Origin: a virus
Lineage: Duplodnaviria; Heunggongvirae; Uroviricota; Caudoviricetes
Virus record (IMG/VR): IMGVR_UViG_2740892270_000008
Direction: 5' to 3' (one strand)
Length of the DNA: 26,692 nucleotides
The translations under genes and the position numbers were made by a program. Position 1 is the stretch's first letter; every line of letters begins with the position of its first letter. Below are positions 1,717 through 23,808 of this stretch, in pieces. The notes beneath the pieces are model-generated. The model was not told the DNA's origin and made no database searches. It saw only the letters and a program-made list of their open reading frames with translations.

Positions 1717-3804
1717 ATGTTTGCTTCAGTTAAAGAACTGGTTGGATTACCGGGGATGCCGGGAACGGAGCAAGGCGTTCGCTATTCAATCAGGAAGTAT
1801 GCAACCAGCGAAACCAGCAGACGCCGCAAGAAAGGCGCTAAAGGTTTTGAATACAGCATTGACTGTTTACCTGAAGTGACACAGCAGGCATTACGCGAAC
1901 GTTATGCCCTGCAACTGATGACGCAAAAAGCCGATGAATCACCGGCTCCGGTGGTGACAAAGGCCAGACGCTCGTCTGCCGTGGTTGATGCGGTGGAGGC
2001 ATATCGCGGATCACCACAACTGATGGTCGAACGCCTCAATGCCCTGACTGAAAACCAGCGCCAGGTGGCAGACGCACGCATTGCGATCGTCAGTGAGGTG
2101 CTGAAATTCACGCAACAACCCGGTTTCAGCTGCGCTAAAGCTATCCGGTTCCTCGTTAACAGCCTGGCACGATCACAACTGGACGAGCGCATTGTGGCAA
2201 TGGTTGAGACGGCGAACGCCAAAAAGGGAAACAGCCGCGCGTTGAGTGAAATCACGCTGAAACGCTGGATTGCGGCCTTTAACAAGGCACAGAACGCCGC
2301 TGAACGCCTGCTTTTACTGGCACCGGGTAAACGCCAGGAAATAAAAGCCGAAGATATTAACTGGCTGCCCGAATTTCTGGCGCAGTATCGCCAGTCAAAC
2401 GGCCGACCAATGACCGAGGCTTACGAGGATTTTGTTGCTGAATGGCAGCACCGGCACGCTGATGAGCCTTATATGCTCGATATCATGCCCTCTTATGACA
2501 CCATTCGCCGCGCAATGAAGAAACTGCCGGAAGTGGTGAAACAAAAAGGCCGGGTAACTGGCAGTGAATACCGTCAGCTTGAGGGATTCACGCGCCGCGA
2601 CTGGTCCAGAATGCCGGTGAATTATGTCTGGATTGGTGACGGTCACGGCATGAAGCTGAAATGCGCGCACCCGGTTCACGGGCGGCCATTCGCACCGGAA
2701 GTGACCTTTGTTATCGACGGTGGCACGCGCTTTGTGGTGGGCTGGAGCCTTGACCTGGCTGAAAATGTTTTCGCCGTAGCCGGTGCCATACAGCACGGTA
2801 TTCGCCATCATGGCAAACCGTTTCTGTATTACTCGGATAATGGCTCCGGGGAAACCGCCGACGTCCTGGATAAGGAGATTGTGGGGATACTGCCACGACT
2901 GGGGATTAATCACCCGACAGGGATTGCCGGTAATCCGCAGGGACGGGGCATTATCGAACGGCTTAACCGCACATTACCGATGCGCATAGCCCGTAAATAC
3001 CGCACCTATTTCGGGAAAGGAGCAGATCGCGAGACGTTACGTAAAACCAACCGCGATTTACGCTCGGCATTCAGTGCCCTGCAACAGGGCAAACGGCTGA
3101 ACGCCCGGCAGCAGTCAGCGATGCGTGATTTACCGTCCTGGTCTGAACTGATTGATGCCATTCGTGACGGTGTTGAGTGGTACAACAACCGGCCGCACGA
3201 TGAATTACCCATGAAGCCGAACGGTAAACATTACAGCCCGGCGGAGTTCAGAAAAAAACGCCTGGCGGAAGAGGACACGGAAATTGAATGGCTGTCCGAT
3301 GTTGAACTGCGGGATATGTTCCGGCCGATGGTGGAGCGCCCTGTAAGACGCTGTGAAATACGCTGGCTGAATAATATTTACTACGCGCCCGAGCTGCGTG
3401 ACGAGCATGGCCGTAAGGTACTTATCAGCTATGACATTCATGATGCCGAACGAATTACCGTGCGCCGCCCGGATGGCAGCGTGATTTGCGAGGCGGTATG
3501 GGACGGCAATAAACGCGAAGCCTTCCCTGTCAGCGCGGAATACTACAAACAGCAGCAGCGCCTTAAAGGCATGCGTAAACGCGCAGAGGAAAAAATCCGT
3601 GATGCCGAGGATGAGGTTGTCAACGTGCTGGAGCACAAGCCGCAGGAGCCCTGGCTGGAAAACATATACCGCCCTGTGGGTAATACGGTGACCGTTCAGC
3701 AACCGGTCGCTGACGATGAACCTGATGAAGAATACGAGCGTAATTTCCAGCGGGGATTGCAACTGCTCGAAGCGAAATTAAAAGAAAGTGATCCGCTGGC
3801 CTGA
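1717..3804 (+). CDS. Mu A-like DDE transposase
   Basis: 695 aa following ner; DDE core region VWIGDGHGMKLKCAHPVHGRPFAPEVTFVIDGGTRFVVGW and ...YYSDNGSGE...; size and position as MuA. Confidence 0.9.
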   Translation: MFASVKELVGLPGMPGTEQGVRYSIRKYATSETSRRRKKGAKGFEYSIDCLPEVTQQALRERYALQLMTQKADESPAPVVTKARRSSAVVDAVEAYRGSPQLMVERLNALTENQRQVADARIAIVSEVLKFTQQPGFSCAKAIRFLVNSLARSQLDERIVAMVETANAKKGNSRALSEITLKRWIAAFNKAQNAAERLLLLAPGKRQEIKAEDINWLPEFLAQYRQSNGRPMTEAYEDFVAEWQHRHADEPYMLDIMPSYDTIRRAMKKLPEVVKQKGRVTGSEYRQLEGFTRRDWSRMPVNYVWIGDGHGMKLKCAHPVHGRPFAPEVTFVIDGGTRFVVGWSLDLAENVFAVAGAIQHGIRHHGKPFLYYSDNGSGETADVLDKEIVGILPRLGINHPTGIAGNPQGRGIIERLNRTLPMRIARKYRTYFGKGADRETLRKTNRDLRSAFSALQQGKRLNARQQSAMRDLPSWSELIDAIRDGVEWYNNRPHDELPMKPNGKHYSPAEFRKKRLAEEDTEIEWLSDVELRDMFRPMVERPVRRCEIRWLNNIYYAPELRDEHGRKVLISYDIHDAERITVRRPDGSVICEAVWDGNKREAFPVSAEYYKQQQRLKGMRKRAEEKIRDAEDEVVNVLEHKPQEPWLENIYRPVGNTVTVQQPVADDEPDEEYERNFQRGLQLLEAKLKESDPLA

Positions 3805-3886
3805 AATAAAAAAATAACCCGAGGGGTGACTCAGGTTATTTGAGGTTTCAGTCTCGGAGAATGCTGTCTCAAGCGAGGTGAATAAT

Positions 3887-4646: not shown

Positions 4647-4958
4647 NNNNNNNNNNNNNNNNNNNNNNNNNNNNNNNNNNNNNNNNNNNNNNNNNNNNNN
4701 NNNNNNNNNNNNNNNNNNNNNNNNNNNNNNNNNNNNNNNNNNNNNNNNNNNNNNNNNNNNNNNNNNNNNNNNNNNNNNNNNNNNNNNNNNNNNNNNNNNN
4801 NNNNNNNNNNNNNNNNNNNNNNNNNNNNNNNNNNNNNNNNNNNNNNNNNNNNNNNNNNNNNNNNNNNNNNNNNNNNNNNNNNNNNNNNNNNNNNNNNNNN
4901 NTACAGCGGAATATGCCGTTCTGTTGGTGCGAAACAAGTCAGCTAAATGAGGTGTTAT

Positions 4959-7284: not shown

Positions 7285-7799
7285 TGTTCTTTAAAACATC
7301 AAACCCTTCCGCGCTGGCTGCGTGGCAAAAATACCAGCAGGACTGCCAGAAAGTTAAGGATGAGGCAAAACGCCTTGAGGCCGTGCTGAATGTTGCGTGC
7401 CGGTCGGTATTTGTATCCGGTATCAGTGGATTTTACTTTAAGGGACTGCGTTTTACGGAGGACAAATATCCTTTTCATCGCGACTTATGGCGAAAACCGA
7501 CTGCGTCGAATGGCTGGAGCTGCACACCGCGCACATCACGTATCCCTAAAACCCTGCGTGTTGCCTCTGATGAACTGAACAGTCTGTGGCGTGAATATTC
7601 GCCCGTCACGTATGCCAGAACCGATGCGCTGTTGTTCTGGTTGGGTATTGATTTCTCGGCAATCCTGTTTGGCCCTGTGAAGTGGTTCTGCGTTGACGAT
7701 GTGATTTACCTTCAGTGCGGCGTAAAACCCGCAAAACAGAAAATGACCGAAATACTGTCTGATGAGTTTTATGCTGCTGAAAAGCGAGTCAGGGGGTGA
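7284..7799 (+). CDS. Hypothetical protein
   Basis: 171-aa ORF coupled to upstream ORF; no recognisable motif. Confidence 0.45.
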   Translation: MFFKTSNPSALAAWQKYQQDCQKVKDEAKRLEAVLNVACRSVFVSGISGFYFKGLRFTEDKYPFHRDLWRKPTASNGWSCTPRTSRIPKTLRVASDELNSLWREYSPVTYARTDALLFWLGIDFSAILFGPVKWFCVDDVIYLQCGVKPAKQKMTEILSDEFYAAEKRVRG

Positions 7800-7802
7800 T
7801 GC

Positions 7803-8354
7803 ATGATGAAATTACAACCCATGGGACTAAAAGGTCGCGCCCCCGCTCATGTCCGTCCGTGGACACCTGAAGAAGATGCGCTGCTGATTGCGCTTTATTC
7901 ATCCACCCCGGTTAAGGATATTGCTGCCAGAATAAAAAGAACTGTCTGGGCTGTATATAACCGGACTGGTGTATTGCGCAGTTCATACCCGGAGTTACTG
8001 AAATATAAACACCCAAGATTTACACCTGATGAAGATAAGTTTATTCGAAAAAATGCCAGAACAATGACCTGCCAGCAAATGGGAGAATATCTCGGACGTA
8101 ATAAAGATTCTGTCAGATGTCGGGCAGGAATGATTGGTGCTGGATTAACAAAGTGCGGAGAGTTACGCCCCGGCACGCGCATATCTGATGATGATGTACG
8201 TCTTATACGTGAGCTGCGTGATTCCGATTACCCACGCCGTCTGTCATTCCGGGAAATTGGCGAAAAGTTTGGAATATCTGAACATTCTGCTCACGCAGTT
8301 TATTACCGTCGCCGGACTGCCGAGGACGCTGTATTACGGGAGTTAACGCCATGA
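7803..8354 (+). CDS. Putative DNA-binding protein with three tandem HTH (Myb/SANT-like) repeats
   Basis: 183 aa; three ~45-aa repeats each beginning (T/S)P-(E/D)-ED: WTPEEDALLIALY...IAARIKRTVWAVYNR / FTPDEDKFIRKN...MGEYLGRNKDSVRCR / ISDDDVRLIREL...IGEKFGISEHSAHAVYYRR; SD AGGGGG 6 nt upstream. Confidence 0.55.
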   Translation: MMKLQPMGLKGRAPAHVRPWTPEEDALLIALYSSTPVKDIAARIKRTVWAVYNRTGVLRSSYPELLKYKHPRFTPDEDKFIRKNARTMTCQQMGEYLGRNKDSVRCRAGMIGAGLTKCGELRPGTRISDDDVRLIRELRDSDYPRRLSFREIGEKFGISEHSAHAVYYRRRTAEDAVLRELTP

Positions 8355-8683
8355 TAACGACCTTATTTGTTGAATCAGATGAACCTCTTGTGTGTGCCGC
8401 CGGAATGCCGCTCTGTGGCGGAACGCTGACCGGCGTTTATTTCGGGGATTTGCGCGGTTATCCCTGGCATTCACTGGATGACGCATTTCCGCCTGATATG
8501 GAGGCTGTCGTGCTGATTGTTCAGTATGGTGACCAACAGGAACTGCGCATCGGCCATATGGGGTATGAAGGCTTTTTTATTGATGAAGAAACCGGAGCCT
8601 GCCTTGAAGATGAGGACGGACAGGTGACGCACTGGTGCCATCTTTCGGCCTTGCCGGAATTACAGGGGATACATAATGGATGA
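8351..8683 (+). CDS. Hypothetical protein
   Basis: 110-aa ORF, ATGA-coupled to preceding gene; acidic. Confidence 0.45.
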   Translation: MITTLFVESDEPLVCAAGMPLCGGTLTGVYFGDLRGYPWHSLDDAFPPDMEAVVLIVQYGDQQELRIGHMGYEGFFIDEETGACLEDEDGQVTHWCHLSALPELQGIHNG

Positions 8684-8819
8684 GCAAATTGTTGAATGTC
8701 CCACCTGTGGAAATGAGGACCCGGAGTATCTGAAAGAGTGCCCACATTGTGGTGAGATAAAATGTAACCACTGCGATATGGGCGACGACACTGCATGTAT
8801 AAATTGTGAGGATGAATAA
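8676..8819 (+). CDS. Small zinc-ribbon protein with four CxxC motifs (not in ORF track)
   Basis: Manually translated: MDEQIVECPTCGNEDPEYLKECPHCGEIKCNHCDMGDDTACINCEDE (47 aa); CPTC, CPHC, CNHC, CINC; start overlaps upstream gene end, stop abuts next gene start. Confidence 0.5.
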   Translation: MDEQIVECPTCGNEDPEYLKECPHCGEIKCNHCDMGDDTACINCEDE

Positions 8820-8820
8820 T

Positions 8821-9108
8821 ATGGAAAAAGAAATCAAATTTGCGCCTAAATCTATCGACGAAGAACTGGCTAAAATCGGCATGCTTGAACGTATGCGGGA
8901 CATTATCGAATATGCGATAAAAGAAAATCTTGCAGCCAGAGAAGCCCTTTTGATAATGGAGCGGGAGATTAACCTGATTAAGGATGCTGTATCTCTGGAT
9001 AATAAAATAGCCCGCGAGGAATACGTTCGCCGTAGGCTCGGTGTTGATGGTTCAGCAATTCTTACATCTGAACATTATGCAAAAATTTTTAATCTTTTTC
9101 AGCGGTAA
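8821..9108 (+). CDS. Hypothetical protein, AT-rich moron-like gene
   Basis: ATG 8821 (MEKEIKFAPKS...) with GAGGA upstream; roughly 40% GC versus ~55% in flanking phage genes (eyeball estimate). Confidence 0.5.
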   Translation: MEKEIKFAPKSIDEELAKIGMLERMRDIIEYAIKENLAAREALLIMEREINLIKDAVSLDNKIAREEYVRRRLGVDGSAILTSEHYAKIFNLFQR

Positions 9109-9328
9109 TCCCCATACAGGCCCGGAGATTGTCGAAATGCCAGTCGGTATTAATATATGAGCCATCCTGGATATCTTCTGCATTTTCCGGGGTAGAGTTT
9201 TTTTGAGCGAGATTGATAATATGTATTGCCTCCTCACGGGAAATCAGCCCCTTATCGAACAGGGTTACCATAAGATTTCCAGCCATTGTGAATGCGGCAA
9301 CATCAAGTGCATTTTTTATATCTGACAT
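9089..9328 (-). CDS. Hypothetical protein on the opposite strand (moron-like), convergent with the upstream gene
   Basis: 79-aa minus-strand ORF; start codon at 9326-9328 with AAGGA ~9 nt upstream on minus strand; 3' end overlaps the convergent gene by 20 bp; lower GC. Confidence 0.45.
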   Translation of the reverse strand: MSDIKNALDVAAFTMAGNLMVTLFDKGLISREEAIHIINLAQKNSTPENAEDIQDGSYINTDWHFDNLRACMGITAEKD

Positions 9329-9356
9329 AGATTTTTCCTTTTATGTTAATTGACAT

Positions 9357-9386
9357 GGCGGTGCGGTAACACCGCCCATTTTTTAT
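9357..9386 (+). terminator. Putative intrinsic terminator (GC hairpin plus T-run)
   Basis: GGCGGTG-CGGTAA-CACCGCC perfect 7-bp stem followed by CATTTTTTAT; lies between the minus-strand moron and gemA. Confidence 0.5.
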
Positions 9387-9398
9387 GGAGCCACGATA

Positions 9399-9701
9399 AT
9401 GAATCGCGCTTCCCTGATTACCTTAATACATGTCGCAAAACGCGATCTACAGCTTGACCATGATACCTATACATCCGCGCTGCTGGCAGCCACCGGCAAA
9501 TCCAGTTGCCGTGATATGTCACCCGGTGAGTTATCCCGCGTGCTGGATGTTTTCAAAAAACGCGGTTTTAAAGTGCGTCAGAAGCCGGTTAACCGGGCCT
9601 TAAAACCGGGTACGGTGACCGCCAAAATTCGCGCCATCTGGAAAGTGATGCACCGGCAGGGATTTATCTCTGATGGCGGGGAAACGGCCCTTAACCGCTG
9701 G
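9399..9701 (+). CDS. gemA: GemA-like protein (Mu gp16 family), C-terminus inside N-masked block
   Basis: MNRASLITLIHVAKRDLQLDHDTYTSALLAATGKSSCRDMSPGELSRVLDVFKKRGF matches Mu GemA N-terminus as recalled; runs into mask 9702-9953. Confidence 0.75.
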
Positions 9702-9972
9702 NNNNNNNNNNNNNNNNNNNNNNNNNNNNNNNNNNNNNNNNNNNNNNNNNNNNNNNNNNNNNNNNNNNNNNNNNNNNNNNNNNNNNNNNNNNNNNNNNNN
9801 NNNNNNNNNNNNNNNNNNNNNNNNNNNNNNNNNNNNNNNNNNNNNNNNNNNNNNNNNNNNNNNNNNNNNNNNNNNNNNNNNNNNNNNNNNNNNNNNNNNN
9901 NNNNNNNNNNNNNNNNNNNNNNNNNNNNNNNNNNNNNNNNNNNNNNNNNNNNNATGATGACCGGAGGCGGGT

Positions 9973-10224: not shown

Positions 10225-10405
10225 NNNNNNNNNNNNNNNNNNNNNNNNNNNNNNNNNNNNNNNNNNNNNNNNNNNNNNNNNNNNNNNNNNNNNNNNNNNN
10301 NNNNNNNNNNNNNNNNNNNNNNNNNNNNNNNNNNNNNNNNNNNNNNNNNNNNNNNNNNNNNNNNNNNNNNNNNNNNNNNNNNNNNNNNNNNNNNNNNNNN
10401 NNNNN

Positions 10406-16306: not shown

Positions 16307-16556
16307 NNNNNNNNNNNNNNNNNNNNNNNNNNNNNNNNNNNNNNNNNNNNNNNNNNNNNNNNNNNNNNNNNNNNNNNNNNNNNNNNNNNNNNNNNNNNNN
16401 NNNNNNNNNNNNNNNNNNNNNNNNNNNNNNNNNNNNNNNNNNNNNNNNNNNNNNNNNNNNNNNNNNNNNNNNNNNNNNNNNNNNNNNNNNNNNNNNNNNN
16501 NNNNNNNNNNNNNNNNNNNNNNNNNNNNNNNNNNNNNNNNNNNNNNNNNNNNNNNN

Positions 16557-17910: not shown

Positions 17911-18381
17911 ATGTCATCCATTGATGCAGCTGTCGTTGTTGACGTTACGCGTCTCCAGCGAGTGTTTGCCCGGCTTCAGTTTGTGGGCGGCGGAAAAGAC
18001 CTGGCCCGCNNNNNNNNNNNNNNNNNNNNNNNNNNNNNNNNNNNNNNNNNNNNNNNNNNNNNNNNNNNNNNNNNNNNNNNNNNNNNNNNNNNNNNNNNNN
18101 NNNNNNNNNNNNNNNNNNNNNNNNNNNNNNNNNNNNNNNNNNNNNNNNNNNNNNNNNNNNNNNNNNNNNNNNNNNNNNNNNNNNNNNNNNNNNNNNNNNN
18201 NNNNNNNNNNNNNNNNNNNNNNNNNNNNNNNNNNNNNNNNNNNNNNNNNNNNNNNNNNNGTATGCCACCGGGACCGGCGGCCATTGGCGCACGTCCGTAT
18301 ATGGGCTTTGATCAGGTGGCAGAACAGGAGATCATGGACGAAATCAGAAAACGCTTTAAAAAGGCCACAGAAACGCCGTAA
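17911..18381 (+). CDS. Virion morphogenesis protein G-like (Mu gp31-like); middle masked
   Basis: ORF stays in frame across the 249-nt mask (83 codons), giving 156 aa, which matches the size of Mu G as recalled; SD GGAGG upstream. Confidence 0.6.
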   Translation: MSSIDAAVVVDVTRLQRVFARLQFVGGGKDLARXXXXXXXXXXXXXXXXXXXXXXXXXXXXXXXXXXXXXXXXXXXXXXXXXXXXXXXXXXXXXXXXXXXXXXXXXXXXXXXXXXXXMPPGPAAIGARPYMGFDQVAEQEIMDEIRKRFKKATETP

Positions 18382-18558: not shown

Positions 18559-19692
18559 ATGAAGACAGAAAATCACCCAAAAGACGCAAATCGCCCCTCC
18601 GGTTTAGCCGTGCTTTCAGCTTCGCTGACTGCATCCGGCGACGGATGGTGTCAGTTACTGCCAGCCGGTCGGGTAAAGGCCCGTGACGGTCGCCCGGAAA
18701 AACCGACTGAAGGCTGGCTGATTAACGAATCCGCCTGTAACCGGATGAAAGCCGGGCTTTCCGCCCTGCATCAGCCGTTACTGATTGATTATGACCATCA
18801 CTCCGTGAATGCGCAGAAAAACGGATTCAAGGCTATTGCTGCAGGATGGGTTAAGCCGGAAAACATCGAATGGCGTGAGGGTCAGGGGATTTTCATTAAA
18901 CCTGAATGGACACCACAGGCACAAAAACATATTGATGACCGTGAATATGCCTATCTGTCTGCATATATGCATTATTTCGCTGACACCGGGGAACCCTACC
19001 TGTTGCGCATGGCTTCCCTGACGAATGATCCGGGTATTACGGGTATGAACCCTGTCGCGGCACTCAGTGCTGATGATCTCTATGTCGTTTCCCCTTCTCA
19101 GGAGCAATCCCCCATGAATGAGCAATTACGCCAGTTGCTGACGGCGCTCGGTCTGACCGTGGCTGACGGTGACGAATTTACACCGGAACTGGGCACGGCG
19201 GCGCTGTCTGCCCTTACCGGGATCAAAACCCGTGCGGATGCGCACGACACCCTGAAAACGCAGGTTGCCAGCCTGTCGGCAGAACTGGAAACCGCAAAAG
19301 GCACACCAACTGGCGGCACTATTGATCTGACGAAATATGTGCCCGTTGAGACGTATAACGCCCTGCGTACCGAATATGCCGCGCTGTCGGCACAACACGG
19401 CAGCACCACGCTGGAGCAGTTGCTGGATAAGGCCGAGTCCGAAGGACGCATTTTCAAAAGCGAACGCGGATACATGGAAGGACTCGGACAACAGATTGGC
19501 GTCGCGGCACTTTCTGCACAGCTTGACGCCCGCCAGCCGGTTGCGGCTCTGACCACTCTTCAGACCGACACCGTAACCGTGCCGGATAAAAAGACCGCCA
19601 CCGCTGTGCTGTCGGCTGAAGATATCGCCGCCGCACGTCTGTTGGGTAAAACCGAAGCCGAGTTCCTGAAAATGAAAGAGGAAATGCAATAA
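18559..19692 (+). CDS. Prohead protease/scaffold protein I (Mu gpI-like)
   Basis: 377 aa directly upstream of major head gene; Ala/Leu/Thr-rich helical C-terminal half typical of scaffold; position as Mu I. Confidence 0.75.
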   Translation: MKTENHPKDANRPSGLAVLSASLTASGDGWCQLLPAGRVKARDGRPEKPTEGWLINESACNRMKAGLSALHQPLLIDYDHHSVNAQKNGFKAIAAGWVKPENIEWREGQGIFIKPEWTPQAQKHIDDREYAYLSAYMHYFADTGEPYLLRMASLTNDPGITGMNPVAALSADDLYVVSPSQEQSPMNEQLRQLLTALGLTVADGDEFTPELGTAALSALTGIKTRADAHDTLKTQVASLSAELETAKGTPTGGTIDLTKYVPVETYNALRTEYAALSAQHGSTTLEQLLDKAESEGRIFKSERGYMEGLGQQIGVAALSAQLDARQPVAALTTLQTDTVTVPDKKTATAVLSAEDIAAARLLGKTEAEFLKMKEEMQ

Positions 19693-22300: not shown

Positions 22301-23808
22301 TGATTAACTTTGATTATATCGGCGATAACAATCGCATTCCGCTGGTACAGATTGAAATCAATAATTCAATGGCCGTGACCGGCACTCCACCACAGCGTCA
22401 GGCGGTACTGTTGTTTGGTCAGGCTGCAATGAAAGACACTACCATTCAGGGGCGCGGTCAGCTTGATGTACCAGTACGTATTACCCGAGCTTCACAAGCA
22501 AGAGAACTCTGGGGGCGAGGTTCCATGATTGCACTGATGGTAGAGGAATTTATCGCCATTAACCCTGACACAGAGTTATATGCCATTGCACAGGGGGCTG
22601 GAACAGGTCAGTCCAGGGCATGCGTGATGAATATCATTGGAACAGCATTGGCAGACGGGGTGTTAAGTGTTTACATCGGCGGTCGCCGTTACCTCCTGCC
22701 CGTCAGTAAGGGGAAAAAAGGTAAAGAGCTTGTGGAAGAGCTGGCTAAGGTCATTAACGCTGACACTGATGCGCCATTCACTGCTATCGCAGCTGAAGTC
22801 AGTGGTGATAATGCTGAAGGACTTAAAGGCAGCATGGGGGTTAACGCCCGCTTTATCGGTGAATGCTCAGCTCATGATTTACGGGTGAACTATTATGACG
22901 GTGAAACTACACCGGCCGGTCTTACGCTGGAGCTCGTCGCGCCAACACAGAAGGCAACAAACCCCGATATCACCCGTAGCGTCTCAGGGATGGGGAATCG
23001 TCAGTACAACTACATCGTCATGCCCTATAAGGATGCGGCAAATCTCAAAATTCTGGCGGATGAACTGCTGAAACGCTGGGGACCGGTAAAAATGTCGGAC
23101 GGTATGGTCTGGATGGCGCATACCGGCACCTTCGGTACGGCAACCAGTTTTGGTGAATCCCGTAATGACTTCCTGTTTACCTGCACTTCTATTCCTAAAG
23201 CACCAGAGCCGGATTATGTCTGGGCTGCCTCCATTTGTGCGGTCTGTGCGCCCTCCCTGTCAACGGATCCGGCCCGACCATTACAGANNNNNNNNNNNNN
23301 NNNNNNNNNNNNNNNNNNNNNNNNNNNNNNNNNNNNNNNNNNNNNNNNNNNNNNNNNNNNNNNNNNNNNNNNNNNNNNNNNNNNNNNNNNNNNNNNNNNN
23401 NNNNNNNNNNNNNNNNNNNNNNNNNNNNNNNNNNNNNNNNNNNNNNNNNNNNNNNNNNNNNNNNNNNNNNNNNNNNNNNNNNNNNNNNNNNNNNNNNNNN
23501 NNNNNNNNNNNNNNNNNNNNNNNNNNNNNNNNNNNNNGCAGCGTTTTCCGCGCCATAAACTGGCTGATGACGGGACGCCCGTTCGTGCCGGTCAGAATAT
23601 CGTGACACCGGAGATCATGAAACTTCAGTTAATTTCGCTGGGGGAAGAATGGGTGGATCTGGGACTGGTCGAAAATCTGGACACCTTTAAAAAGAATCTG
23701 CTCGTGGAGCGCAACACAAAAGACCGTAACCGTCTGGATGTGATGTGTACACCGGATCTGGTTAACCAGTTCCGCTTCATGGCCGCGCAGATCCGTTTCA
23801 TTTTGTGA
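22300..23808 (+). CDS. Contractile tail sheath protein L (middle masked)
   Basis: 502-aa frame continuous across mask 23288-23537; position before tail tube; size near Mu L. Confidence 0.8.
   Translation: MINFDYIGDNNRIPLVQIEINNSMAVTGTPPQRQAVLLFGQAAMKDTTIQGRGQLDVPVRITRASQARELWGRGSMIALMVEEFIAINPDTELYAIAQGAGTGQSRACVMNIIGTALADGVLSVYIGGRRYLLPVSKGKKGKELVEELAKVINADTDAPFTAIAAEVSGDNAEGLKGSMGVNARFIGECSAHDLRVNYYDGETTPAGLTLELVAPTQKATNPDITRSVSGMGNRQYNYIVMPYKDAANLKILADELLKRWGPVKMSDGMVWMAHTGTFGTATSFGESRNDFLFTCTSIPKAPEPDYVWAASICAVCAPSLSTDPARPLQXXXXXXXXXXXXXXXXXXXXXXXXXXXXXXXXXXXXXXXXXXXXXXXXXXXXXXXXXXXXXXXXXXXXXXXXXXXXXXXXXXXXQRFPRHKLADDGTPVRAGQNIVTPEIMKLQLISLGEEWVDLGLVENLDTFKKNLLVERNTKDRNRLDVMCTPDLVNQFRFMAAQIRFIL

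Follow-up and report, generated by a model that had tools for sequence, protein, structure and literature searches.

Two small, AT-rich open reading frames (ORFs) converge and overlap directly upstream of gemA in IMG/VR record IMGVR_UViG_2740892270_000008 (Caudoviricetes), a Mu-like transposable prophage of Escherichia coli. What is the reverse-oriented member of this pair, and what could it do at the end of an operon that is read in the opposite direction? The window referred to below is the whole stretch of 26,692 nucleotides (nt) that was analysed. The original prediction, made from the letters alone, took the pair and a GC-rich hairpin next to it for an independently regulated moron cassette, possibly under antisense control. 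Our comparison points to the gp14 and gp15 genes of phage Mu, to a coding function of the minus-strand ORF, and to a second, minus-strand terminator-like hairpin inside the plus gene that the original prediction did not contain. We regard the whole package, i.e., the gp14–gp15–gemA junction of Mu with gp15 as an antisense, lysogen-phase accessory gene, as evenly balanced between right and wrong, and we trust its anatomy far more than its timing and function.

The gp14 and gp15 families of Mu-like phages

The whole plus-strand protein aligns with phrog_6075 (E = 5e-44, residues 1–95 over 100 profile positions). In tblastn searches it was 49% identical to gp14 of Mu (old name E15) and 56% identical to gp14 of D108, and SfMu was also matched. 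By homology, the plus gene is thus a gp14/E15 homolog and not newly acquired; it is a regular member of the early operon and occupies the same slot of the semi-essential early region as in Mu and D108, which does not fit a moron cassette. The full-length homologs in Mu and D108 carry the same conserved motif that holds the embedded hairpin described below. They differ from the window protein in the C-terminal tail, the part that overlaps gp15, which varies in length and sequence among lineages. Between lineages, gp14 is 28–59% identical and 95–121 amino acids (aa) long. The structural model of gp14 is all-helical with a long central helix (predicted local distance difference test, pLDDT, 86.9). 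A scan of the loci with gp14 of locus L025 as a single protein query gave no match.

The minus-strand protein matches phrog_32893 (E = 1e-45). PHROG cross-matches connect this family to Mu gp15 (phrog_8747) at 6e-4 and to a 119-aa reverse ORF of D108 (phrog_38610) at 5e-7, and these profile matches place the minus gene in the Mu gp15 family (phrog_32893 / phrog_8747 / phrog_38610). The family has diverged strongly. Pairwise identity among the reverse proteins from the window, L009, Mu/SfMu and D108 is just 21–36%, the window protein is approximately 21–25% identical to those of Mu and D108, gp15 identity between lineages is 16–41%, and there are at least six strongly diverged allelic types. 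Common to gp15 proteins is the N-terminal motif D.AAF.LAGN.L..L..KG.I(S/T)..EA..I, and many members also have a C-terminal helix motif, DWH(F/L)DNL.A (in its longer form DWH(L/F)DNL.A.L). Mu gp15 shares the N-terminal helix motif with the window protein and lacks the C-terminal DWH(F/L)DNL helix of the window type (phrog_32893). A word-indexed profile search found 21 clusters and an exhaustive search 33 matches, which were mostly proteins of 47–119 aa with a few spurious repeat proteins. All gp15 sublineages were recovered by the profile searches, and the two motifs are kept across more than 30 representative clusters. The AlphaFold2 model of gp15 (pLDDT 71) has three main helices, at residues 2–25, 31–44 and 61–71, and a disordered linker.

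Some profile matches were set aside. P0049 and P0052 are weak matches on short contigs that lack a Mu context, and they were not counted as family members. Matches to spidroin and to DUF2680/SHOCT-like proteins were rejected as low-complexity sequence or a generic motif. The N-terminal gp15 profile weakly matches SHOCT- and DUF2680-like repeat proteins (PF09851, PF10925) with the pattern G-[VI]-I-T-x-E-[EQ]-A. This likeness is a generic helix-capping motif and has no bearing on function; no Pfam family matched the window minus protein at E <= 0.1, and the motif was found just in unrelated repeat proteins.

The arrangement of the two genes is as constant as the gp15 sequence is variable. In the RefSeq record of Mu (NC_000929), gp14 lies at 7655–7957 (+), gp15 at 7896–8162 (−) and GemA starts at 8233. 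SfMu has the same layout, in Mu_3F6 the reverse gene is annotated, and the D108 record has a 376-base pair (bp) gap that contains the 119-aa reverse ORF. Mu gp15 (NP_050619), SfMu_16, the Mu_3F6 gene and the unannotated D108 ORF have the same position and orientation as the minus gene of the window: they converge with and overlap gp14, and diverge from gemA over approximately 70 bp that hold the same hairpin. The convergent overlap of gp14 and gp15 was found in every lineage, with a length of 20–98 bp (62 bp in Mu vs 20 bp in the window), and among viral contigs of IMG/VR a convergent gp15 was present in 13 of the 14 loci with a complete gp14. The spacer between gp15 and gemA measures 68–74 bp in ten lineages. 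L025 and L027 have the gp14–gp15–gemA trio, with a gp15 that is 36–39% identical to the window protein. L030, whose gp15 is 29% identical to it, has the gp14/gp15 pair, and the divergent neighbour is a DUF2786 gene instead of gemA, at a distance of 95 bp. The genes upstream of gp15 in these three loci were confirmed to be gp14 homologs. The same order of gp14, gp15 and hairpin recurs in Mu, SfMu and D108 as well as in Mu-like phages that are far more distant, which also speaks against a moron cassette.

The pair may be exchanged as a whole. L021 and L022 carry a D108-type gp14 and gp15 in a window-type backbone; therefore gp14 and gp15 move as one block, as expected for overlapping genes. Deletion of gp15 alone also occurs. 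Yersinia phage vB_YpM_23 (L016 1200–1255) and the IMG/VR locus L035 (approximately 1800–1855) have lost gp15 and half of the spacer through the same precise deletion, which lies between short TGAT repeats and places the hairpin 11 nt past the gp14 stop codon. vB_YpM_23 is plaque-forming, and the deletion phages keep the hairpin and gemA. This natural deletion shows that plaques can form without gp15 and that retention of the hairpin does not depend on gp15.

These data bear on whether gp14 and gp15 are a coupled pair, either toxin/antidote-like or mutually antisense-controlled, in which the 3' overlap lets each mRNA down-regulate the other. The two genes are paired and overlap in every lineage, even where the neighbour gene has changed, the D108-type genes have travelled together into another backbone, and the minus transcript must span at least the last ~110 nt of gp14 to reach the embedded terminator. 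However, the physical overlap by itself explains co-inheritance. gp14 persists without gp15 in vB_YpM_23 and L035, so it cannot be a toxin for which gp15 is required, and the ranges of identity (28–59% for gp14 vs 16–41% for gp15) argue against tight co-evolution. No toxin–antitoxin or defence model matched; the genes converge, unlike the co-directional, bicistronic genes of a type II toxin–antitoxin pair, and neither protein had a toxin–antitoxin match in Pfam, NCBIfam or PADLOC. We consider such a coupling quite unlikely.

In lambdoid phages, a moron is an extra gene that has its own promoter and terminator and is expressed from the prophage. gp15 resembles these morons in being a single small gene with its own terminator-like hairpin, a lower G+C content, dispensability for plaques and variability among relatives. 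The terminator would be the conserved, covarying minus-strand hairpin and U-tract, which is predicted and has a weak allele in the window. Unlike the morons, gp15 is fixed in a conserved slot, its absence is a result of deletion and its terminator lies inside the neighbouring gene. The G+C content of gp15 is 0.42 vs 0.54; the gene is missing, through deletion, from vB_YpM_23 and L035, and 13 of 14 IMG/VR loci have it. The notion of an independent unit can be kept in part. The minus gene resembles a separate transcription unit, with its own Shine–Dalgarno sequence, purifying selection in its own frame and a terminator-like hairpin, and it is the label of a moron cassette that has to be dropped. 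In the window-type prophages with the D108-type pair, a reverse 140-aa ORF is inserted between gemA and mor (L021 and L022, 1964–2386). It has no Pfam match and resembles a true moron-like insertion.

Coding of the minus strand

The two Mu records disagree about this region. NC_000929 (L012) has the reverse gp15 of 88 aa at 7896–8162, whereas the current GenBank record AF083977 (L011) replaces it by a 55-aa forward ORF, 'Mu_54', at 7960–8127; the D108 record GQ357916 leaves the region without annotation. Together with the existence of several frameshifted minus alleles, these records would agree with the minus ORF being no gene and with a region that encodes a plus-strand protein or nothing. 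The ratio of nonsynonymous to synonymous substitution rates (dN/dS) was lowest of six frames in the minus frame in five of six lineage pairs (0.19–0.41; other frames approximately 0.3–2.4). The pairs comprise five moderately diverged ones, from four sublineages, and Mu vs SfMu, which differ at just 5 sites and are uninformative. In every lineage an AGGA/GGAG/GAGG element lies 5–9 nt ahead of the ATG of the minus gene. Because this frame has the lowest dN/dS, a Shine–Dalgarno sequence occurs in every lineage and the two motifs are kept over deep divergence, the minus ORF is, on comparative grounds, genuinely coding. A terminator-like hairpin also accompanies it everywhere. In contrast, the window and its close relatives have no ATG-started plus-strand ORF in the gp15 region, Mu_54 has no PHROG match, and in L023 the Mu_54 frame has no ATG and no matching stop codon, and its sequence is scrambled. 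The comparative data support the reverse-strand gp15 over the forward Mu_54, and we regard it as very improbable that the minus ORF is not a gene.

The frameshifted minus alleles include P0005 and P0007–P0010 (at the run of seven A, A7, P0008 resembles A6 and P0007 resembles A8), and a 2-bp insertion was found in three independent assemblies (L005–L007). The shifts cluster in the linker (9198–9204 and approximately 9186), and all but one enter the same alternative frame, which is open to 9052. They are read as prophage decay or as sequencing error at the A7 run. A programmed frameshift or phase variation at A7 was considered and rejected: the shifts occur at several different sites with few member sequences per allele, the alternative frame is closed elsewhere in the family's lineages, and the C-terminal motif of the normal frame is conserved family-wide. 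The linker also has a feature of another kind. At 9145–9228, approximately 25 clustered substitutions part two haplotypes, the window and L003 vs all other window-type loci, with nearly identical flanks, which suggests a small recombinant patch or a hypervariable segment.

Stem-loops in gp14 and ahead of gemA

On the minus RNA, a stem-loop and a tract lie 25–55 nt past the gp15 stop codon in 12 of 12 lineages examined (stem 9038–9009 and tract 9008–8998 in the window). The gp14 codons that specify the conserved motif NKIAREEYVRRRLG also form this stem, which in L009 is perfect over 13 bp. In the alignment of this stem 90.9% of cells were paired and three pairs were changed on both sides (8 cells); 1–2 of 500 shuffles reached the observed values, and slid controls gave <=50%. 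The changes in D108 gp14 (KKAHNNIVCRELG) fall at the positions where stem pairs change, and this is consistent with selection for pairing. A terminator scanner called the embedded site in L009 (13 bp) as the sole terminator-like site in 800 bp, and in AF083977 the equivalent part of Mu gp14 bears a TransTermHP terminator. The tract after the stem is T-rich in most lineages, e.g. UUUUUUGUUAU in D108 and L042, and weakest in L027 (UUUACGGUUGU) and L030 (GUUUGGUUGU). These features are terminator-like, and we predict that the embedded stem-loop is the minus-strand intrinsic terminator of the gp15-like gene.

Neither an antisense ORF of 79 codons nor one terminator-like site is by itself beyond chance, and three terminator-like sites in 1.7 kb compare with 1.7 +/- 1.4 expected by chance. 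The minus ORF and the hairpin were judged real because of the conservation data and not because of their mere presence.

The hairpin in the spacer had been noted in the original prediction, and it holds up in the terminator scan as GGCGGTG-CGGTAA-CACCGCC at 9357–9376 followed by CATTTTTTAT at 9377–9386. It has a 7-bp stem with 6 GC pairs and a T6 run (−13.2 kcal/mol, z = −2.3) and lies approximately 20 nt ahead of the gemA start. The hairpin is conserved in all lineages, most of which keep GGCGGTG/CACCGCC; the stem is GGC(T/C)GCGC/GCG(C/T)GGCC in L009/L019, and in L030 the GGCGG/CCGCC core is retained within a longer stem. In the alignment 96.3% of cells were paired and two pairs were changed on both sides, and slid controls gave 31–65%. 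In the window, 9357–9386 has the layout of a Rho-independent terminator, a GC-rich stem-loop and then a U-tract, as read from the letters. Among relatives the U-tract is not conserved along with the stem: the tract is T-rich in the window (T6), L021, L025, L027 and L030, and it is CCCTTTCC in Mu and TGTATTAT in L009.

It is also conceivable that the GC inverted repeat acts at the DNA level, as an operator to which a protein binds within the gem promoter region, rather than as an RNA hairpin or a terminator. Most lineages share the arms GGCGGTG/CACCGCC in spite of diverging flanks, a degree of sequence conservation that a hairpin does not require, and AF083977 annotates a 'semi-early promoter' over Mu 8151–8217, from the gp15 start to just past the hairpin, i.e., over the inverted repeat. 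However, L009 and L019 have a hairpin at the same place with another stem sequence and with compensatory and wobble changes, which favours structure, and a pyrimidine- or T-rich tract always comes next on the plus strand. An operator is therefore an unlikely explanation in our estimate. A Mor-type activator site was rejected by reasoning on geometry, since a site centred approximately 43 bp upstream of a transcription start would put that start inside either coding sequence (CDS).

Two variants of the spacer were observed. In L025 (2948–2969) the hairpin has T-rich tracts on both strands and is terminator-like both ways, whereas that of the window is so on one strand. In E. coli 2012EL-2448 (L003 ~3047–3813) an IS1A lies inside the hairpin (~9357–9365) with a 9-bp target duplication, GGCGGTGCG. 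It parts the minus gene from gemA, yet regenerates an intact hairpin beside gemA.

Possible expression and role of gp15

The convergent layout is such that antisense overlap of the predicted transcripts is forced. We infer that gp15 forms a complete transcription unit of its own, antisense to the end of the early operon in which it is nested, and that the plus-strand hairpin would mark the boundary between transcription from the early promoter (Pe) and the gemA–mor unit, as a leaky terminator and/or as the 5' stem-loop of a separately promoted gem transcript. The plus and minus transcripts would overlap over approximately 390 nt (8998–9386), so expression of gp15 would be favoured while the early promoter is repressed, i.e., in lysogeny. 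After induction, gp15 might be damped by transcriptional collision or by antisense pairing with the early transcript. Four traits of gp15, namely its hypervariability, its exchange between backbones, its AT-richness and the fact that plaques form without it, make an accessory product most likely, and we would expect a lysogen-phase factor against the host or competing phages and not a lytic component.

Opposed, overlapping transcription units are also found in other phages. The pR and pL promoters of coliphage 186 form a convergent-promoter transcriptional interference switch. In the Pseudomonas Mu-like phage Fc02, opposite-strand overlapping genes near the early operon mediate superinfection exclusion, and one of them is transcribed in the lysogen (PMC9936078). 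Unlike these systems, gp14 and gp15 overlap at the far end of the early operon and not at the lysis–lysogeny switch, and the exclusion genes of Fc02 have no sequence relation to gp14 or gp15. The gem operon of Mu is reported, in the title of a paper, to be constitutively expressed in lysogens (ref. 71 title, PMC3820752).

Several results weigh against gp15 as an antisense lysogen gene with its own terminator. The embedded terminator allele of the window itself is weak (−10.8 kcal/mol, z = −1.0, two mismatches). Approximately 1/10 of window-type database sequences, by member counts, are frameshifted in the C-terminal half of the minus gene, a fraction that is compatible with weak selection in prophages. 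The T-tract of the plus-strand hairpin is poor in Mu, and a real terminator ahead of gemA would cut off gemA–mor, which is needed for lytic growth, so it must be leaky or bypassed. Consensus and weight-matrix scans for a promoter of the minus gene found no strong or positionally conserved sigma-70 site, and no usable expression data for gp15 or the gem promoter, nor from Mu transcriptomics, were found in the searchable literature. Pfam, NCBIfam and PADLOC gave nothing meaningful for either protein or for the variants from Mu, D108 and L009, and comparison of both proteins with PDB sequences and folds gave no informative match. No Rfam family was matched.

gp15 could instead be a dedicated regulator of gemA–mor, with divergent overlapping promoters in the length-constrained spacer of approximately 70 bp. 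Either the gp15 protein or transcription of gp15 as such would then set the level of gemA–mor and time the early-to-middle switch. This would agree with the spacer length of 68–74 bp in ten lineages despite their divergence, with the fixed distance of the hairpin from the gemA start, and with the gemA promoter of AF083977, which lies in the spacer and reaches into the gp15 start. However, in L030 the pair diverges from a DUF2786 gene and not from gemA, and phages with gp15 deleted form plaques and keep the hairpin and gemA. In addition, no DNA-binding domain was detectable in gp15, and its extreme allelic diversity is unusual for a core regulator. A regulatory role of this kind appears improbable to us, and we keep to gp15 as an accessory lysogen-phase gene.

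A more far-reaching proposal, which we offer as a doubtful one, is that the junction is a conserved regulatory gate. A hypervariable lysogen protein would be transcribed against the early operon, up to a terminator inside a conserved motif of gp14. It would have a conflict function aimed at phages or the host (such as exclusion or anti-defence), and transcriptional collision and the leaky plus-strand terminator would put a brake on basal early read-through into gemA–mor, which stabilises lysogeny. The developmental circuit of Mu would gain a new element if gp15 indeed acts in exclusion or anti-defence, or if it limits read-through into mor; otherwise gp15 is just a further conserved hypothetical protein.

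Mu is a paradigm phage, and functions have been assigned to only a minor part of its semi-essential early region. The gp14/gp15 junction of Mu is already known and uncharacterised. With respect to the visible annotations, what appears to be new is the comparative evidence for the reverse gp15 over Mu_54, the breadth and two-motif structure of the gp15 family, and the conserved, covarying terminator-like hairpin embedded in the gp14 CDS. Annotators gain a clear correction, the reverse gp15, at a spot of Mu where two public records conflict. For experiments, gp15 is a candidate lysogen-phase gene that is small, hypervariable and dispensable, and two defined RNA structures accompany it.

The coordinates of the junction are listed in Table 1. 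Six complete E. coli genomes are 100% identical to bases 8821–9398 of the window (a 578-bp query, matched in full by, e.g., E. coli JE86-ST05), and in these prophages the PGAP annotation has exactly two hypothetical CDSs that equal ORF 8821–9108 and ORF 9089–9328. A Myb/SANT-like regulator gene, a hypothetical gene, gemA ('gp16 family') and mor flank the pair there. The convergent overlap and the AT-richness given in the original prediction were both confirmed; the plus ORF encodes 95 aa from its ATG and the minus ORF 79 aa, and their G+C contents (0.399 and 0.421, respectively, vs 0.542 for the window) are the lowest among the early ORFs. The claim that the minus gene is the only credible reverse gene did not stand, because a repressor-like XRE/HTH gene at 753–1298 is likewise on the minus strand.

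Table 1. Coordinates of the gp14–gp15–gemA junction in the window. RBS, ribosome-binding site.
Feature	Coordinates	Strand	Remarks
gp14 homolog (E15)	8821..9108	+	95 aa, helical; last gene on the early-operon strand ahead of gemA
gp15-family gene	9089..9328	−	79 aa, predicted small helical protein
3'–3' CDS overlap	9089..9108		20 bp; no intergenic room for a terminator between the genes
Embedded minus-strand stem-loop, within gp14 codons (motif IAREEYVRRRLG)	9009..9038	−	50 nt past the minus stop codon
U-rich tract AUUUUAUUAUC (minus RNA)	8998..9008	−	Directly after the embedded stem-loop
T7 run (A7 in the minus gene)	9198..9204		Variable linker of the protein; the frame shifts here in database alleles that lose or gain one A
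Shine–Dalgarno AAGGA of the minus gene	9336..9340	−	7 nt ahead of the ATG, read from sequence
GC hairpin GGCGGTG-N6-CACCGCC	9357..9376	+	In the 70-bp spacer from the minus gene to gemA
T-tract CATTTTTTAT	9377..9386	+	Makes the hairpin intrinsic-terminator-like on the plus strand in this phage
Shine–Dalgarno GGAG of gemA	9387..9390	+	Read from sequence; corresponds to the RBS annotated in Mu record AF083977
gemA 5' part (Mu gp16 family)	9399..9701	+	Pfam GemA E = 2.5e-19; divergent from the minus gene; N from 9702

Other observations concern the rest of the window. Runs of N mask it at 4647–4901, 9702–9953, 10225–10405, 16307–16556, 18010–18259 and 23288–23537 (approximately 180–255 bases each). 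The masked parts include most of gemA and part of mor, and the downstream partners are unreadable here. In L001, PGAP annotates a 'tRNA-OTHER' at 19047–19126 (−), between the minor head protein and virion morphogenesis genes (approximately 17.9 kb in the window), although a search of the whole window with ARAGORN found no tRNA. An ORF of 47 aa at 8676–8819 (+) immediately precedes the gp14 homolog and is without PGAP annotation in L001. It belongs to phrog_5584, has weak Pfam zinc-ribbon matches, and its four CxxC-type cysteine pairs are zinc-ribbon-like.

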